In this document: positions 9,170-63,933 of the stretch, in pieces | How positions within the stretch are numbered: position 1 is the stretch's first letter | Layout: the number at the start of each line of letters is the position of its first letter | Origin: Escherichia phage OliverMaurmann_Bas86 | Strand: one strand, 5' to 3' | Sequence record: PQ850622.1 | DNA: 64,000 bases | Translations under genes and position numbers: made by a program | The notes under the pieces: model-generated | What the model was told of the DNA's origin: nothing | The model's input: only the letters and a program-made list of their open reading frames with translations | Database searches by the model: none

Positions 9170-10222
9170 ATGTCTCTTTTCGGTTCTGCTCCTAAATCTA
9201 AGACTACGGTAGCTCCGTCTTCTCAGGTTGATGCTCTTCTGAAACAGATTGTAGCAAATGCTCAGGCTATGAATCAAAACGATCAAGGTTTTATTGGTCG
9301 TAACGTAGCGGGTTTTAATGAAAACCAAACAGCAGCTCTTTCTAATTTAGCAAATTCTAACACACTCAACCAACTCAGTCAGATGTACACCCCTAGAACT
9401 CAACAAGGGTTGGACCAGATGAATGAGTTGGCTCAGAAATATCAAAACCTAGTTAATAAAGGTGGTATCACTGCTCAGGATGTTAATAATTTTAGCTCTG
9501 GATTGAATAGCTCTGCTTTAGCTAAGTCTACAGGTAAAGCTGCTGCTAATGTATCTCTTGGTAATGGTTCTGATTCAGGTTCTCTTAGACGTGCTGCTGC
9601 TCAAGGTGCTGCTCTTTCTTCAGCGAACACTAATCTCTCTCGCTCTATTCAGGGTAAAAATATGGGTGTTAACACTCTTCTGAATAACAACTCTTATCAG
9701 CAAGGTTTGCTAAACGCTCAATCTGGTTTAGCAGGTCAGAACTTGAATCTAGGTGCTGCTGGAGTACAAGCTGGTCAACAGGCAATACAGAATCAGCTTA
9801 CTGCTGGTAATCTTCAACAACAGCAAGATCAACTCCAAGCTAACAACAATTGGGAGAATGCTATTGGCAATCAACAGTACGGTTGGAATCAGCTTAACAA
9901 TCAGCTTAATGTATTAAACTCAGTAAGCCCTATGGCTGGATACACTATTACTAATAAAGGTGCTGCCCCTAGTGCTTCGCAACAAATCCTTGGTGCTGGC
10001 GTTACAGGTCTTGGTATTGCTGGTCGTTTAGGTGCTTTTACCCCTAACCAGCAAACTACTAATGCTTGGAACTCATACAATGCTTCTGGAGGTCAAGCCG
10101 GATTGGCTGGTCCTATGATTGGTGGCTCAAACCTGTCTCAACAGAATGGTCAGAGCAACTGGTTATCTACCGCAGGAAGTAATATCTTAGGTGGTGTTCT
10201 AGGAGCCTTTGGAGCAAATTAA
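9170..10222 (+). CDS. Q/N/G-rich low-complexity virion protein (paralog 1)
   Basis: MSLFGS..KTT start, NVAGFNENQTAALSNL motif, Gly-rich hydrophobic C-tail. Paralog of 10232..11200. Confidence 0.6.
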   Translation: MSLFGSAPKSKTTVAPSSQVDALLKQIVANAQAMNQNDQGFIGRNVAGFNENQTAALSNLANSNTLNQLSQMYTPRTQQGLDQMNELAQKYQNLVNKGGITAQDVNNFSSGLNSSALAKSTGKAAANVSLGNGSDSGSLRRAAAQGAALSSANTNLSRSIQGKNMGVNTLLNNNSYQQGLLNAQSGLAGQNLNLGAAGVQAGQQAIQNQLTAGNLQQQQDQLQANNNWENAIGNQQYGWNQLNNQLNVLNSVSPMAGYTITNKGAAPSASQQILGAGVTGLGIAGRLGAFTPNQQTTNAWNSYNASGGQAGLAGPMIGGSNLSQQNGQSNWLSTAGSNILGGVLGAFGAN

Positions 10223-22898: not shown

Positions 22899-22909
22899 TA
22901 ATGTATATA
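22899..22909 (+). promoter_or_regulatory. Same motif TAATGTATATA in divergent (plus) orientation
   Basis: Points away from SSB into an ORF-free, hairpin-rich 200 nt and then antisense to gene 23104..23742. Confidence 0.4.
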
Positions 22910-29193: not shown

Positions 29194-29268
29194 GTTACTA
29201 ACTCCTCCTTAAAATCCTTATAGGTAAGTACATTACATAGCATCAAGCACAGCTATCATATGCTACTT

Positions 29269-54474: not shown

Positions 54475-54748
54475 TCTGGCGTTTAATTTCTTCAGTGAGT
54501 TGCTTATTAAGATCTTGAATACGCTTAATCTCCCAACCCAAAGAAGCCAAACGATCGTTACGTGCTTCGATTTGTTCCTGCATTTTAAGTAATTTGGAAC
54601 GAACATCAGCATTAAAAACTTCTTCTTGCTTAAGAAGGAACTCGTAACGACGCTTCCAGCTTGCTGATTTATTTCTTAAAACAATAAACCCTAGAGTAGA
54701 AACCGTTACAGTGAGTACGAAAAGGAACTTATAAACCTCTAAAGACAT
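54443..54748 (-). CDS. Membrane-anchored coiled-coil protein
   Basis: N-terminal TMD FLFVLTVTVSTLGFIVL followed by a charged helix. Confidence 0.55.
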   Translation of the reverse strand: MSLEVYKFLFVLTVTVSTLGFIVLRNKSASWKRRYEFLLKQEEVFNADVRSKLLKMQEQIEARNDRLASLGWEIKRIQDLNKQLTEEIKRQNEETGDALKG

Positions 54749-54949
54749 ATCTTTATCCTCTTAAAGTAAGATATTATAAGAAATATTATTTAGAATTTAT
54801 TATTTCTAAACTTAATTTCTATCAATAATTTTCAGAGGTCTATATACAGTCATTACCTCTGGTCCCAAATCACTTCCACTTTTTACAGAGAAAATCATAA
54901 GTGTGTGATTTATAAGGAAATTTAGTTTGTCAATATTGGCACCTATGAA

Positions 54950-59725: not shown

Positions 59726-60052
59726 TTACGGATTGGTGCAAGTGCCGTTACCTGATGCTATTTCGTTCATCGACTCATCGAACAACGTCATGCTAGACCG
59801 CATCATGTGATCAATGGTGATTTGCTTGCCTGTTGTCTGATTGACCAGCATTGCAGACTTACTATCAACTATCTTGCTGTCGTAGTCGTTCAGGTCAATC
59901 AATATTGCCTTGCTGGACTTCTTGCCAGTGTCGTAGTTTTCCATTAGATAGGTGCATTGCAGACCATCTAAACTGGCCTCGTTGAATACGGCAGCATGTG
60001 ACACGGAAGAAACAGCGAACAAGGCAGCACATACAGCTAATTTAATTTTCAT
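59726..60052 (-). CDS. Secreted (Sec signal peptide) small protein
   Basis: MKIKLAVCAALFAVSSVSHA-AV. Confidence 0.6.
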   Translation of the reverse strand: MKIKLAVCAALFAVSSVSHAAVFNEASLDGLQCTYLMENYDTGKKSSKAILIDLNDYDSKIVDSKSAMLVNQTTGKQITIDHMMRSSMTLFDESMNEIASGNGTCTNP

Positions 60053-60421: not shown

Positions 60422-60669
60422 TAGTTATCCTCGATAGTCAATAACTCTTCCAGCGATAAGCCAGATTTAACCAGCAAATCACGATACTCGTTAGCATCCA
60501 TCGGATCGAGGCCGGACAATTGAGCGATGGTCATGCGTGCACGTAATGAAGGTAAGGAAACTAAAGCACGGATAGGGATCAATACAAGCCCATATTTACC
60601 ACTGATAACTAAATCACCGTGCTGGATGCACATATGAGCATTTACTACGATTGCAAATGATTCATTCAC
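60421..60669 (-). CDS. Hypothetical protein
   Basis: 82-aa ORF, coupled. Confidence 0.5.
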   Translation of the reverse strand: MNESFAIVVNAHMCIQHGDLVISGKYGLVLIPIRALVSLPSLRARMTIAQLSGLDPMDANEYRDLLVKSGLSLEELLTIEDN

Positions 60670-61166
60670 TGGATAGCCTCACAATTAGCAAAGTTAATAA
60701 AGGTTGTATAAACTGCTACACCGTCATTGTAAGCAGTGGTAGCGAGTACAGTTTCACTCACATCCCCATAACTAACGAGATTCGTTACGAACTGTAATTT
60801 CTCTTTCTCGACCTTCTGATATAGAGAGTAAGTCACCATATCTTGATCACTATCAGCACGTTTCAATTTAATGACTGACTGAGTGCCAGATTTCTCGCCC
60901 AATGGGGTAAGAGTGACACGCACATTAGCGGTAGTGACTTCATTGAAGTGTACACGCCAGAAGGCATCATTACCATCACTACCAACGTCACGGCAGACCA
61001 TATCAGGAGCATTCTTAAACGTGCTAACAAAGGATTGCAGACCTGTAGGAGCGGATAACGCTTTATCATCTTTAGCCTGAACATTGGTAGCGATAGCACT
61101 AACACCGATAGCTGCAACCAGTGCATAGGACGCTAGATTGATAGCCTGCATTGCTTTGATAGCCAT
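60666..61166 (-). CDS. Secreted protein (signal peptide)
   Basis: ATG at 61166 behind aggag. MAIKAMQAINLASYALVAAIGVSAIATNVQA-KD. Confidence 0.6.
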   Translation of the reverse strand: MAIKAMQAINLASYALVAAIGVSAIATNVQAKDDKALSAPTGLQSFVSTFKNAPDMVCRDVGSDGNDAFWRVHFNEVTTANVRVTLTPLGEKSGTQSVIKLKRADSDQDMVTYSLYQKVEKEKLQFVTNLVSYGDVSETVLATTAYNDGVAVYTTFINFANCEAIQ

Positions 61167-61300
61167 TATTACTACTCCTGATAAATGAAAGATTGTTTGT
61201 CGTGTGTAGTTACTTAGGCTGATCAACCTTCACTACTCACTATCACCGCTAACTACTTTACATCACTGCTTCATTAACGATAATTCAAACTACGATTGCA

Positions 61301-61328
61301 ACTATATATTAAAGGAAAAACATGTCAA
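61301..61328 (-). promoter_or_regulatory. Sigma70-type promoter P-e (leftmost-operon start)
   Basis: TTGACA (61328-23), 16-nt spacer, TATAGT (61306-01). Confidence 0.6.
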
Positions 61329-61617
61329 CCACTTATTTTCAAACTATTTCATAAGTCACTGAATATAAAAGGAATTTAATTTACTAAACTTTCTTGTTCA
61401 GAGATACAGCTTACCAAATAGATGTTATTTTATAACACTTACAGAACGGGTAGCAGACCAACGGGATAGATAGATGGGTAAGACGTGCCGCATAGGTTAG
61501 CCAATGGGTAAGAAGCCTAACGAGGAAGGGGAAACGGGTAGGATATAATGTAAGTTAGTTACAGGTAACAGGTCAGACCATGCGGTGATAAATTACCAGT
61601 CAAATTCCCTACTCATC

Positions 61618-61690
61618 AAAAGAAAAAAGAAACGCTGAAAAAGAAAAGAATAAAAGAAAGAATAAAAATAATAACTAAAGTAAACAACTA
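61618..61690 (+). repeat. A-rich, nearly all-purine tract
   Basis: AAAAGAAAAAAGAAACGCTGAAAAAGAAAAGAATAAAAGAAAGAATAAAAATAATAACTAAAG, lying between the two iteron clusters. Confidence 0.8.
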
Positions 61691-62202
61691 CCAGTCTAAA
61701 CATACATACATCAATAATCCACTCATGAATAATCACATAAGTTATTACATTCAAACTATGGGGGATGGTCATCAATGGTATAGTTTACATAGGTTATCAT
61801 TAATGTTCTTACTATTAATACCGGTTAGTTATAGTCTTCTATTAGTATGCCTGTACAGTGCTAGCCTTTCATCCCTTCTCAATATGAGTAAGAGAAATAC
61901 GGGTGGGAGAATACTGGTTAGATATACATGGGTATTAAATAGATGGCTTATATCAATGGGTAGGGTATTTATGGGTAGGCATACCTCTGATAGCAGGTAG
62001 GGCAAGGATTAGAGCTTAAAGGCTGATTGATTTCCTAAAGGCGATTGCATTCCCTATAACCCTTTTTTAAATGAGGACTCCCCCTTTTACCAAAACACGC
62101 TCGGAGGGGCTAGGTCCACTCGGTCAAATCAGAATTTTAAACTCTTATATATAACTATATGCCCCAACGTTAGTTGTGGATTTAAGAATAAGGAACTATT
62201 TT

Positions 62203-62367
62203 ATGTGGAAGATTAAGTTACTACTTAAGCAATTCAAATGTAATCACGAGTACTATCCAATCCGGATATCAAGAGGTGATGAACGATTACACACTTATTA
62301 CAAGAGTACATGGAGATGTGCAGACTGTGGTAAGGTGAGGAATAGTAAATGGGTGGATAGGCCTTAA
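62203..62367 (+). CDS. Small zinc-ribbon protein (same family as 52480/52698/52872)
   Basis: ATG at 62203 behind aaggaa. MWKIKLLLKQFKCNHEYYP..WRCADCGKV. Confidence 0.5.
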   Translation: MWKIKLLLKQFKCNHEYYPIRISRGDERLHTYYKSTWRCADCGKVRNSKWVDRP

Positions 62368-62502
62368 TGTGAGGTGGACTTTATGGGTATGCCTTTATGA
62401 GATCCCCTTTACATCAGCGTACATGGGTTTATACATGGGTGGGCCTTTAGATGAGTACGCCTTTATGGGTTGATCACTCTCGTTTATCAGAGGAGAACAA
62501 AT

Positions 62503-62751
62503 ATGTTTCTAGACTTTTTATCAGAGGTACTTCCCTACTTCCGCACTGAGAAATGTGCATTTGTATTTGATGAAGGGGAGGAGTCAATGACTTGTTTGGG
62601 TAGATTAGTAGACCTAGACGATGATGAAGATTTTGATGCTACGATGGACATTAGTTCATTGGGCTGGTTGTACATGAGATGCTTTGTAAGTTACAAGGCT
62701 GAAACGTTTAAAGATTATCGCTATAGCGCTGAAGGAGAGAATGATGAATAA
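62503..62751 (+). CDS. Acidic hypothetical protein
   Basis: ATG at 62503 behind gaggag. D/E-rich. Confidence 0.5.
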   Translation: MFLDFLSEVLPYFRTEKCAFVFDEGEESMTCLGRLVDLDDDEDFDATMDISSLGWLYMRCFVSYKAETFKDYRYSAEGENDE

Positions 62752-63400
62752 CAATATGACAGGAACTAATACACTGAATGCAATCTACGAGAACATGGGA
62801 TGTAAAGGCGAGGTTGTTTACAATGGTAATCTCCGTCCTTTATCAGAGGACACTTTCTATCTGAATCGTGTTCATGAAACTACTGGAGGTCAGTCCCGAG
62901 TTGAGATGGCAAAACAATTGGCTCATGGTTCTGTGTATGGTTATGCTCCTTCAACCCGTGAAATATGGGAAGGTTTGATTCCTTGTACAGAAGCTAAAGA
63001 TGTGAAAGATTATTTCACTGTAGCGAAAGAAGTTAAACGTAAGTGTCCGTCCAATTTAGAAGTTGTTCCGTATGTAGCTGACAAACATGCACACCTACCG
63101 GACTATGCCCGTGAGATGATTGAGATGATAGAAGAGGCTGAGTATGAAGCTCTGAATAATTATTTAAATTCAAAAGAGCAATGGTCTCGTAATGTAGTAA
63201 TTGACGAAGAAGGTAATGAAGTTGTAACGTGGGTGCATGTTAGTGAACAAGCTCTGGACCCCGAGCTTGAAGAATACAAAAAATTTTTGGCGTCCTCTTC
63301 TTTTGAGGTAGAGAATGACAAATCTATTCCAGTTAGCTGGGAAGGTGAAACTGTAGCTCTCCAGACTTTGTTCAACCTACACGTAGGTGATGTAGACTAA
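62741..63400 (+). CDS. Hypothetical protein
   Basis: 219-aa ORF with RBS aaggagag. Confidence 0.55.
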   Translation: MMNNNMTGTNTLNAIYENMGCKGEVVYNGNLRPLSEDTFYLNRVHETTGGQSRVEMAKQLAHGSVYGYAPSTREIWEGLIPCTEAKDVKDYFTVAKEVKRKCPSNLEVVPYVADKHAHLPDYAREMIEMIEEAEYEALNNYLNSKEQWSRNVVIDEEGNEVVTWVHVSEQALDPELEEYKKFLASSSFEVENDKSIPVSWEGETVALQTLFNLHVGDVD

Positions 63401-63437: not shown

Positions 63438-63465
63438 TGTAACGATAATGTAGAAGGAGTATAAG

Positions 63466-63933
63466 ATGTTTGGAGAAAAAGGAGAACTCACGCCTGCACA
63501 GGTAGCTGAGATTACAGGAAGACTGCCCGGAGTAACGGAAGAACTTGAATCCAAGGGCATGGAACCAAGCACAGGGAAGTTCACTAAAGGTAATAAATTT
63601 GGACGTCCCAAAGGTAGTAGAGGTAAATTGACACAGCTCATGCTCGATCGTGTTGCTGCTAGTCACCTGTCTCCCGATGAAGTGTTGATTCAGATTTATG
63701 AAGATCCAAATATTCCACCTGATCTTAGATTCAAGGCTGCAAGTAAAGTCGCTGATCTGGTATATCCTAAGGCAGCTTCTGTTGAGGTTAAGATTGAGGA
63801 AGAGAATGTAATCAATGAAGAGTCACTGAACGCACAGATTCGAGACTTCTTGACTGGTGCACTGAAAGTGGATGTGCTACCTCCAGAGGACTCTGAGGAC
63901 GCTGAAAAGGAGGAGGAAGCGGACGAGAGTTAA
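63466..63933 (+). CDS. Terminase small subunit-like protein
   Basis: ..GNKFGRPKGSRGKLTQ..PDEVL..RFKAASKVADLVYPK resembles the GN-x-x-GRPKG..R..AA..L-x-x-Y-x-x-PK pattern of many small terminases. Located at the start of the rightward operon. Confidence 0.5.
   Translation: MFGEKGELTPAQVAEITGRLPGVTEELESKGMEPSTGKFTKGNKFGRPKGSRGKLTQLMLDRVAASHLSPDEVLIQIYEDPNIPPDLRFKAASKVADLVYPKAASVEVKIEEENVINEESLNAQIRDFLTGALKVDVLPPEDSEDAEKEEEADES

Follow-up and report, generated by a model that had tools for sequence, protein, structure and literature searches.

Co-oriented heptamer arrays at the terminal-repeat junction of a phiEco32-like Escherichia phage

The recognition of a phage concatemer junction and the duplication of its terminal repeat are understood in outline only, mainly from phage T7, where the phage RNA polymerase takes part. 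T7 carries arrays of short repeats, named SRL and SRR in the T7 literature. In its sequence one heptamer, CCTAAAG, is found three times inside the 160-bp terminal repeat (plus a CCTAAGG variant), 8-11 times after the repeat and four times before the right-hand repeat (CCTAAGG variants included), with no CCTAAAG on the opposite strand of the array regions; the right array has the phiOR promoter upstream of it, and after the left array come phiOL and A1. Here we describe a comparable layout near the end of a 64,000-nucleotide stretch of Escherichia phage OliverMaurmann_Bas86 (sequence record PQ850622.1; this whole stretch is called the window below), where co-oriented copies of a heptamer, AYGGGTD (A[TC]GGGT[AGT]), are clustered inside and beside a direct terminal repeat (DTR). 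As in T7, a single heptamer is repeated on a single strand, with copies inside the repeat and on both of its flanks (the right-hand array of the window being a separable composite), and a rightward promoter accompanies the right-end array, phiOR upstream of it in T7 and a candidate at its downstream edge in the window, with early promoters after the left-hand array in T7. The analogy is one of layout only: the heptamers are unrelated (CCTAAAG versus AYGGGKA), the phage families differ, and the T7 copies stand in tandem, mostly at 13-bp intervals, whereas the strong copies of the window are 14-30 bp apart with unrelated spacers. Moreover, T7 uses its own RNA polymerase at phiOR, whereas phiEco32-like phages depend on the host polymerase and gp36 and have no polymerase of their own.

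The closest described systems are the repeats of phiEco32, SU10 and YF01. That of phiEco32 was mapped by restriction mapping, primer walking and subcloning, sharp read drop-offs were seen at both ends of the SU10 repeat, and the YF01 ends were confirmed on full-length nanopore reads (PMC4281155, PMC9965538); the SU10 authors call the terminal-repeat mechanism unknown (PMC4281155). The junction region of the window is 85-96% identical to that of phiEco32-group Escherichia phages (101114BS3, MLP3, Bas87, SU7, NC-B and others), and by sequence the window phage is a phiEco32-like podophage of the Gordonclarkvirinae. Its repeat is homologous to those of phiEco32, SU10 and YF01: they all begin with AGCCTTTC, end in ...GGCT and carry heptamers at +36 and +65 as well as an internal CCCTTTTTTA-N10-CCCCCTTTT block. 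The neighbours also agree, with an early leftward operon on one side and small genes, the TerS-like gene and TerL on the other. It differs in length (249 bp in the window and the SU7/NC-B-like group versus 192-194 bp in the phiEco32 group, 205 in Bas89), the extra length lying in the middle and including a second TAAAGGC unit, and it differs in the internal heptamers, which are ATGGGTA in the window and ACGGGGA in the phiEco32 group. The elements central to the argument are the following (window positions).

61446 to 61540, plus strand: array 1, four strong copies of A[CT]GGGTA with spacings of 28, 30 and 30
61863 to 62111, plus strand: DTR of 249 bp, present as one collapsed copy, identified by homology
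61899 to 61977, plus strand: array 2, ACGGGTG, ATGGGTA, ATGGGTA and ATGGGTA, inside the terminal repeat
62349 to 62471, plus strand: array 3, a composite repeat, GCCTTWAYGKG, carrying five copies of ATGGGT
63466 to 63933, plus strand: gene for a 155-aa TerS-like protein, directly upstream of the large terminase gene in relatives

Terminal repeat and genome ends

The region is very probably the concatemer junction of a phiEco32-like phage, with one copy of the DTR collapsed and the assembly permuted. The initial annotation had offered physical genome ends with a permuted assembly as one of its options, and this option is now supported by homology to the phiEco32 and NC-B repeats and by the places at which the records of relatives begin. 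The same homology establishes the identity of the repeat and its boundaries, placing the left physical end at 61863 (AGCCTTTC...) and the right end at 62111 (...GGGGCT). At least eight linear records of relatives, among them SU7 (GenBank and RefSeq copies), HC-25922, 101114UKE3, NC-B and EK010, start at the base that matches 61863 or 1-2 bases from it. An exact repeat is present at both record ends of phiEco32 (193/193 bp) and of NC-B (250/250 bp), and these two repeats begin with AGCCTTTC, end with GGCT and align end to end with 61863-62111. Furthermore, the DNA to the left of 61863 matches the right genome end of the relatives and the DNA to the right of 62111 matches their left end, as required of a phiEco32-type junction, in which unique DNA of the right end adjoins the repeat on one side and unique left-end DNA, including the terminase genes, adjoins it on the other.

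The two ends of the repeat also resemble each other. For comparisons of this kind we assembled 19 junction-spanning sequences, the window phage included, with relatives drawn from INPHARED records and Logan contigs after an IMG/VR scan with the TerS-like protein had returned only five loci; more distant comparison phages were L030-L032 (TerS 75-84% identical), Privateer, GAP52 and pSal-SNUABM-01. A boundary context, RAGnGnCT/AGsC (the slash marks the cut), is common to both DTR ends in all 19 sequences, off by one base in Bas90, Bas91, rybdy3 and 172-1. In the window both boundaries fall in the middle of a CTAG, at 61861-61864 and at 62110-62113. At its right end the deposited SU7 genome has no more than 53 bp of the DTR, a point on which its authors cautioned; a full-length DTR in the SU7 subgroup measures about 249-250 bp.

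The heptamer arrays and their possible role

Matches to AYGGGTD number 51 in the window, versus 26.5 +/- 4.6 in shuffled sequence. Thirteen of the 51 fall in 61446-62471, every one on the plus strand, where only 0.31 would be expected (1026 bp, one strand, at the rate of the rest of the window; Poisson P = 3e-17). A scan of the window with a position weight matrix found no heptamer cluster besides the three at 61446-62471. The initial annotation had noticed about 13 co-oriented copies in three clusters, and we find the same three clusters in the same single orientation. Its treatment of the three as one family did not hold up, in that cluster 3 is a different composite repeat that can be separated from the others, as it is in SDYTW1, where ACGGGG arrays 1 and 2 are combined with an ATGGGT array 3.

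The strong heptamers begin at 61446, 61474, 61504 and 61534 in array 1, at 61899, 61928, 61956 and 61971 in array 2, and at 62349, 62383, 62423, 62435 and 62465 in array 3. Weaker copies lie between those of array 1 (ACGGGAT, ATAGGTT and ACGAGGA) and those of array 2 (ACTGGTT and ATGGCTT). The conserved unit is only the 7-bp core (9 bp with its flanks) and the spacers are unrelated, which is why Tandem Repeats Finder, when run on the junction, missed the heptamer arrays and reported only the A tract and the TAAAGGC pair described below. Array 1 belongs to the unique DNA of the right end, at a distance of 323-417 bp to the left of the DTR, and array 2 lies at +36, +65, +93 and +108 from the left end. 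Viewed from the cuts, the arrays occupy -417..-329 and +36..+108 around the left one, and -213..-135 and +238..+354 around the right one.

The relatives fall into two classes by their heptamer, class A being the ATGGGT phages (n = 6, window included) and class B the ACGGGG phages, among them phiEco32. Among the non-trivial 6-mers of the junction, the heptamer motif ranks first in 18 of the 19 sequences (ATGGGT in six, ACGGGG in 12), and the top 6-mer of the Bas94 junction is the overlapping CACGGG. The +36 and +65 offsets are kept in the 13 phages scored, which represent both classes (+66 in Bas89), and the later copies of array 2 lie at +79/+92 in class B and +93/+108 in class A. Arrays 1 and 2 each open with an ACGGGT copy regardless of class (with ACGGGG in Bas89), and therefore a protein that reads the sites must tolerate A-Y-G-G-G-K-A.

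The cores are also better conserved than the DNA between them, as measured by the mean pairwise identity of alignment columns. In class B the values for core and spacer are 0.89 versus 0.57 in array 1 and 0.89 versus 0.76 in array 2; in class A, whose six phages have a nearly invariant array 1, they are 0.99 versus 0.96 and 0.98 versus 0.85, respectively. Array 1 keeps three cores in SDYTW1, 172-1 and IMGVR_2597490005, although its left flank and first spacer show no relation there to those of phiEco32; where scored (SDYTW1 and IMGVR_2597490005), the cores are 27-31 bp apart. Bas94 has the same unrelated left flank and keeps fewer cores. Among the more distant phages, L030-L032 keep co-oriented ACGGGK copies, the A tract, the CT/AGCC boundary and the conserved right-hand block. 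Privateer has a heptamer of its own, CTATGGR, in the equivalent place, with eight copies before the putative right cut and three after it, and GAP52 likewise has its own, ATTGAGG.

These comparisons bear on one possible explanation of the arrays, which is that they are neutral by-products of local duplication or slippage at a recombination-prone junction and have no function. Some neighbouring units do look recently duplicated (ATGGGTAAGA occurs twice, 30 bp apart, and TATCAATGGGTAGG and TATTTATGGGTAGG are similarly alike), and the DNA next to the repeat is hypervariable. However, neutral duplication does not account well for cores that are conserved while spacers diverge or are replaced, for offsets that are identical in two genera, for the strict single orientation, or for the presence, in T7 and in distant relatives, of comparable arrays built on other motifs, and we consider it very improbable.

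The explanation that we rank first, and to which we give roughly even weight, takes arrays 1 and 2 as sites to which a protein binds and which thereby mark the junction out for cutting, at two places, and for packaging. A phage protein would bind the A-Y-G-G-G-K-A heptamers and assemble on the junction, and the bound protein would position or license the cuts at the two CT/AG sites (61862/61863 and 62111/62112). These cuts would generate and duplicate the terminal repeat and start packaging, with the arrays acting as accessory sites of the pac or cos type, like the T7 CCTAAAG arrays or the lambda cosB R sites. Binding by a protein, the identity of that protein and a purpose in end processing and packaging are all steps that we infer. 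By position and by analogy it is plausible that the arrays are terminase recognition sites: the repeats flank the cut sites and are near the terminase genes, as is the case for the lambda cosB R sites, the SPP1 pacL/pacR boxes and the P1 pac hexamers, which, like the window, include a segment that is AT-rich or bendable. The ends of those phages are cohesive or come from headful cuts, whereas the window has a duplicated 249-bp repeat with two defined cuts, and binding by the small terminase, which has been demonstrated for their sites, is putative for those of the window. The lambda and SPP1 terminase recognition sites are summarised in PMC7672466.

The prime candidate for the protein that binds the arrays is the 155-aa TerS-like protein. 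Its gene, +1.35 kb from the right cut, is the last of three genes between array 3 and the terminase, and it has its own TAATGTA promoter candidate at 63446; the terminase genes lie 1.3-2 kb to the right of the junction. A profile built from 35 homologues gave marginal matches to two PDB entries, 7joq_I (E = 0.011) and 6w7t_I (E = 0.22), the second of which we take to be the PaP3 small terminase. An HHpred similarity to PaP3 TerS has been published for the orthologue in YF01, gp3 (PMC9965538). A Pfam search with the TerS-like protein returned no family above threshold (DUF5681 fell below it, E = 0.093), and a sequence search against the PDB gave no match. An AlphaFold monomer from the 35-sequence alignment was weak, with a predicted local distance difference test score (pLDDT) of 65 and a predicted template modelling score of 0.29, and a Foldseek search of the PDB with this model found nothing below E = 1.

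Several points weigh against the packaging explanation or against this choice of binder. The identification of the 155-aa protein as TerS comes from the marginal profile matches and the published HHpred match, the fold model being too weak to contribute. Between phages of the ATGGGT and ACGGGG classes the protein shares 90-92% identity, with only three columns separating the two (E33/T36/L137); co-variation of these residues with the motif class was rejected as evidence, as it breaks down in wider relatives such as P0046, which has E..ST together with ACGGGK motifs. Array 1 is 320-420 bp from the nearest cut, and it lies directly upstream of a promoter-like element and the A tract, an arrangement that is as much origin-like or regulation-like. 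In PAS59 a different terminal repeat of 275 bp is annotated (positions 1-275), starting 206 bp to the left of the CT/AGCC boundary of phiEco32, NC-B, SU7 and others, and this may be a different end or an assembly overlap. Finally, the likeness to T7 carries over a layout and not a proven mechanism, because the function of the T7 heptamer arrays has, to our knowledge, not been firmly established.

A second protein, of 219 aa (62741-63400) and encoded upstream of the TerS-like gene, was considered as a specificity factor and rejected. Its C-terminal half is conserved and its N-terminal half is lineage-variable, and the variation of the N-terminal half with motif class is explained by simple linkage; its structural model, with a pLDDT of 41, is unusable. 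The name "ABC transporter" given to it (RefSeq and pharokka; PHROG 12176) is without Pfam support and probably spurious. Two natural recombinants were seen in this part of the genome, SDYTW1, with mixed array types and a chimeric 219-aa protein, and TH43, whose arrays are ATGGGT while its TerS-like protein otherwise resembles that of class B.

The repeat of array 3 is of another kind and extends over the late-promoter region and a 5' leader, and the function proposed for arrays 1 and 2 is not extended to it. The initial annotation had described a longer repeat, GCCTTTATGGGT, in this cluster, and such a repeat is real but degenerate, consisting of 4-6 units of GCCTTWAYGKG with a spacing of 16-52 nt. 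The units are at about 62361, 62376, 62390, 62404, 62442 and 62459, and the unit occurs in both class A and class B. The array includes TAATGTG at 62365-62371, in the place homologous to the phiEco32/SU10 late promoter between genes 3 and 4 (PMC4281155). Its first heptamer overlaps the last codons of a 54-aa open reading frame (ORF), and the ribosome-binding site of the gene at 62503 marks the end of the array.

Neighbouring elements and competing explanations

The remaining elements of the junction, several of which bear on other explanations of the arrays, are listed here.

61301 to 61328, minus strand: sigma-70-type leftward early promoter, TTGACA-16-TATAGT (11/12 match), which drives the right-arm early operon
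61524 to 61552, plus strand: candidate rightward gp36 promoter, TAATGTA at 61546-61552 with G at -37 (61524) and A at -34 (61527)
61591 to 61604, plus strand: first copy of a 14-nt direct repeat, AATTACCAGTCAAA, which brackets the A-rich tract and is conserved in class A
61618 to 61690, plus strand: A-rich tract located 78 bp right of array 1, with 70% A and 82% purine
61686 to 61699, plus strand: second copy of the 14-nt direct repeat, AACTACCAGTCTAA, conserved in class A
61752 to 61765, plus strand: conserved block CAAACTATGGGGGA, kept in both classes
62016 to 62055, plus strand: TAAAGGC(T/G)ATTG pair, conserved in class A, with one copy in class B
62060 to 62089, plus strand: CCCTTTTTTA-N10-CCCCCTTTTA, the most conserved block of the DTR, ending 22 nt from the right cut
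62112 to 62160, plus strand: very conserved block AGGTCCACTCGGTCAAATCAGAATTTTAAACTCTTATATATAA, directly right of the right cut and also present in L030
62203 to 62367, plus strand: 54-aa zinc-ribbon-like ORF (C-x-H...C-x2-C), PHROG 7696 (E = 1.6e-11)

Transcription diverges from this region, as the initial annotation had proposed, with the sigma-70 promoter directed leftward (61328-61301) and the rightward genes starting from 62203. This leftward promoter is conserved in class A and in most class B relatives, and the SU7 record annotates a promoter at the homologous place. The candidate rightward promoter has AATGTA at -14..-9 and a predicted start at about 61561, and it points to the right genome end. 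Cryo-electron microscopy of gp36 has shown that this phage sigma factor specifically reads AATGTA at -14..-9 together with -37G and -34A (PMC12276001). All three features are found at six of the 41 AATGTA sites in the window, including 61547 and 63447. The element at 61524-61552 is invariant in class A, and TATAATGTAT also follows the last heptamer in Bas89, L031 and L032; phiEco32 has no such promoter-like element at this place. Candidate gp36 promoters elsewhere in the window are at 9908, 22900 and 63447 on the plus strand and at 29234 and 33801 on the minus strand, and the sites at 22900 and 33801 have TTGGTAGTAGATA in common at -39..-27.

The proximity of array 1 to this element brings up the possibility that the heptamers are operators for a transcription regulator, or -35-like docking sites for gp36, which would control the divergent early promoters and the 61546 promoter and have no direct role at the DNA ends. 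The region does separate divergent operons, and the last strong heptamer (61534-61540) covers -27..-21 of the candidate promoter, a position like that of a repressor site. In addition, the 3' part of the heptamer, GGTAG, equals -37..-33 of the two best gp36-type promoters (TTGGTAGTAG, at 22900 and 33801), and its G4 and A7, which are invariant in both classes, match the gp36 contacts -37G and -34A. However, G-N-N-A is very low in information, a gp36 promoter would need the next AATG to lie 1-3 bp closer to the heptamer than it does, and the recognition helix of gp36 is identical in the window phage and phiEco32 despite their differing heptamers; docking of gp36 on the heptamers was rejected on the last two grounds. 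Array 2 also speaks against regulation, as it lies inside the terminal repeat, far from any mapped promoter, and at fixed offsets from the physical end that are not expected of operators. We regard this explanation as unlikely.

A replication origin near the right end, the chief competitor of the packaging explanation and the other option of the initial annotation, is possible, if on the doubtful side. It would combine array 1 with the promoter-like element and the A tract, array 2 being a second set of sites for the same protein; an initiator would bind the repeats, and the A tract would melt or be primed by a transcript. Origins of a promoter-plus-AT-rich type are known from T7 (phiOR and phi1.1A/B), and iteron-plus-DNA-unwinding-element origins such as lambda ori, P1 oriR and those of iteron plasmids likewise have co-oriented direct repeats beside an A/T-rich meltable tract. 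In the window the order is repeats, candidate promoter and then the most A-rich 70 nt of the whole 64 kb (71% A versus 57% for the next best), located within the second most AT-rich 200 bp (GC 26%), so that an AT-rich segment suited to unwinding does lie close to array 1. The tract is indeed A-rich, and the "almost pure purine" of the initial annotation was an overstatement. It opens with CTGAAAAAGAAA, a motif conserved in distant relatives, and homologous tracts are found in the phiEco32-like phages, GAP52, Privateer, pSal-SNUABM-01 and L030-L032. Conservation of both the tract and the direct repeats around it reaches well outside the genus, class B having ACCACTTAA and TCCACTTAA at the same two bracketing places. 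A phased A-tract bend was ruled out, the A-runs being 5-8 nt apart and without helical phasing.

Some support for an origin comes from GAP52, which has four perfect co-oriented DnaA boxes (TTATCCACA) and one inverted box at the place of array 1 (positions 443-631 of its sequence), preceded immediately by a TAATGTATAA element and followed by the conserved A tract. The cumulative GC skew of the window also has its minimum at about 62 kb, but the switch coincides with the divergence of transcription and is hence confounded. Iterons of known origins are typically 17-22 bp, whereas the heptamer core is 7 bp with unrelated spacers. No Rep/O-like gene is adjacent (eight neighbouring ORFs, Pfam and PHROG), there is no DnaA box with one mismatch or fewer in 61000-63000, and phiEco32 manages without the promoter-like element. 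Moreover, an origin leaves unexplained why array 2 is at fixed offsets inside a repeat that is duplicated at the ends.

The end-processing and packaging explanation and the origin explanation are compatible and not exclusive; the right-end promoter region of T7 has links to replication as well as to packaging. A broader proposal, decidedly unlikely in our judgement, is that some phage protein, or gp36 through its -35-reading domain, uses the heptamers as its recognition sequence and organises the whole junction by firing a right-end origin or promoter, consisting of array 1, the 61546 promoter and the A tract, and recruiting terminase to the two CT/AG cuts. If this were true, the organising factor would replace the role of T7 RNA polymerase at the T7 concatemer junction, and the ATGGGTA/ACGGGGA switch between genera would define specificity groups for packaging or replication.

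Other parts of the junction are conserved to differing degrees. The spacer at about 61770-61860, which runs up to the left cut, is hypervariable and cannot be aligned even within class A. The TAAAGGC(T/G)ATTG direct repeats seen in the initial annotation were recovered by Tandem Repeats Finder (62017-62056, period 19), and their TAAAGGC units are the inverted form of the GCCTTTA found at the left terminus and in array 3. The CCCTTTTTTA-N10-CCCCCTTTTA block has been described for SU10 (PMC4281155) and corresponds to the conserved 130-170 region of 30 DTRs (PMC9965538); it is also found in Privateer and L030. The block at 62112-62160 is possibly a core recognition sequence, an early rightward promoter or both, and a promoter scan of it found no sigma-70 consensus. 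The zinc-ribbon-like ORF is the first gene inside the left end and is conserved in all 19 sequences. The region had been called ORF-poor, and this is correct for 61227-62202, where there is no conserved ORF, but not for 62203-62367, which this 54-aa ORF occupies. An Rfam search of 61000-62800 matched no RNA family.

A few observations concern DNA further to the left. The AT-richest 200 bp of the window are at 54729-54928 (GC 24.5%, with an 80-bp minimum of 13.8% at 54753-54832) and may be the spacer that contains three early promoters between genes 120 and 121 of phiEco32/SU10. The label "terminase" (PHROG 13168 and several GenBank records) on a 108-aa ORF at 59729-60052, minus strand, is probably wrong; on reading its sequence, this ORF has a signal-peptide-like N-terminus, and it gave a weak match to T4 Spackle. 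The neighbouring 166-aa protein (60669-61166) also has a signal-peptide-like N-terminus.

Significance for phiEco32-like phages

The termini and the repeat were already known for the phiEco32 group and have been rediscovered here from raw sequence. The literature covered on phiEco32-like DTRs, from which Savalia 2008 and Pavlova 2012 were absent, describes the repeat and its 130-170 block and does not describe the heptamer arrays; nor does it mention their fixed offsets, the two motif states, the shared cut context or the right-end gp36-type promoter. Literature searches for an origin or iterons in phiEco32-like phages returned nothing relevant. The heptamer arrays are a further example of short repeat arrays at direct terminal repeats.

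There is a practical side to the junction as well. Like the window assembly, many of the group's database records are permuted and one repeat copy short (Bas87 and 101114BS3, for example, are permuted), which matters for the correct annotation of therapeutic phage genomes.

For the biology of the group, the main point is that phiEco32-like phages have a T7-like kind of ends without a polymerase of their own. The elements of their junction that can be mutated are now defined, namely the two cut contexts, the conserved block on each side of the right cut and the heptamer arrays at fixed offsets. In addition, the natural two-state motif (ATGGGTA versus ACGGGGA), together with the recombinants SDYTW1 and TH43, could be used for tests of specificity.

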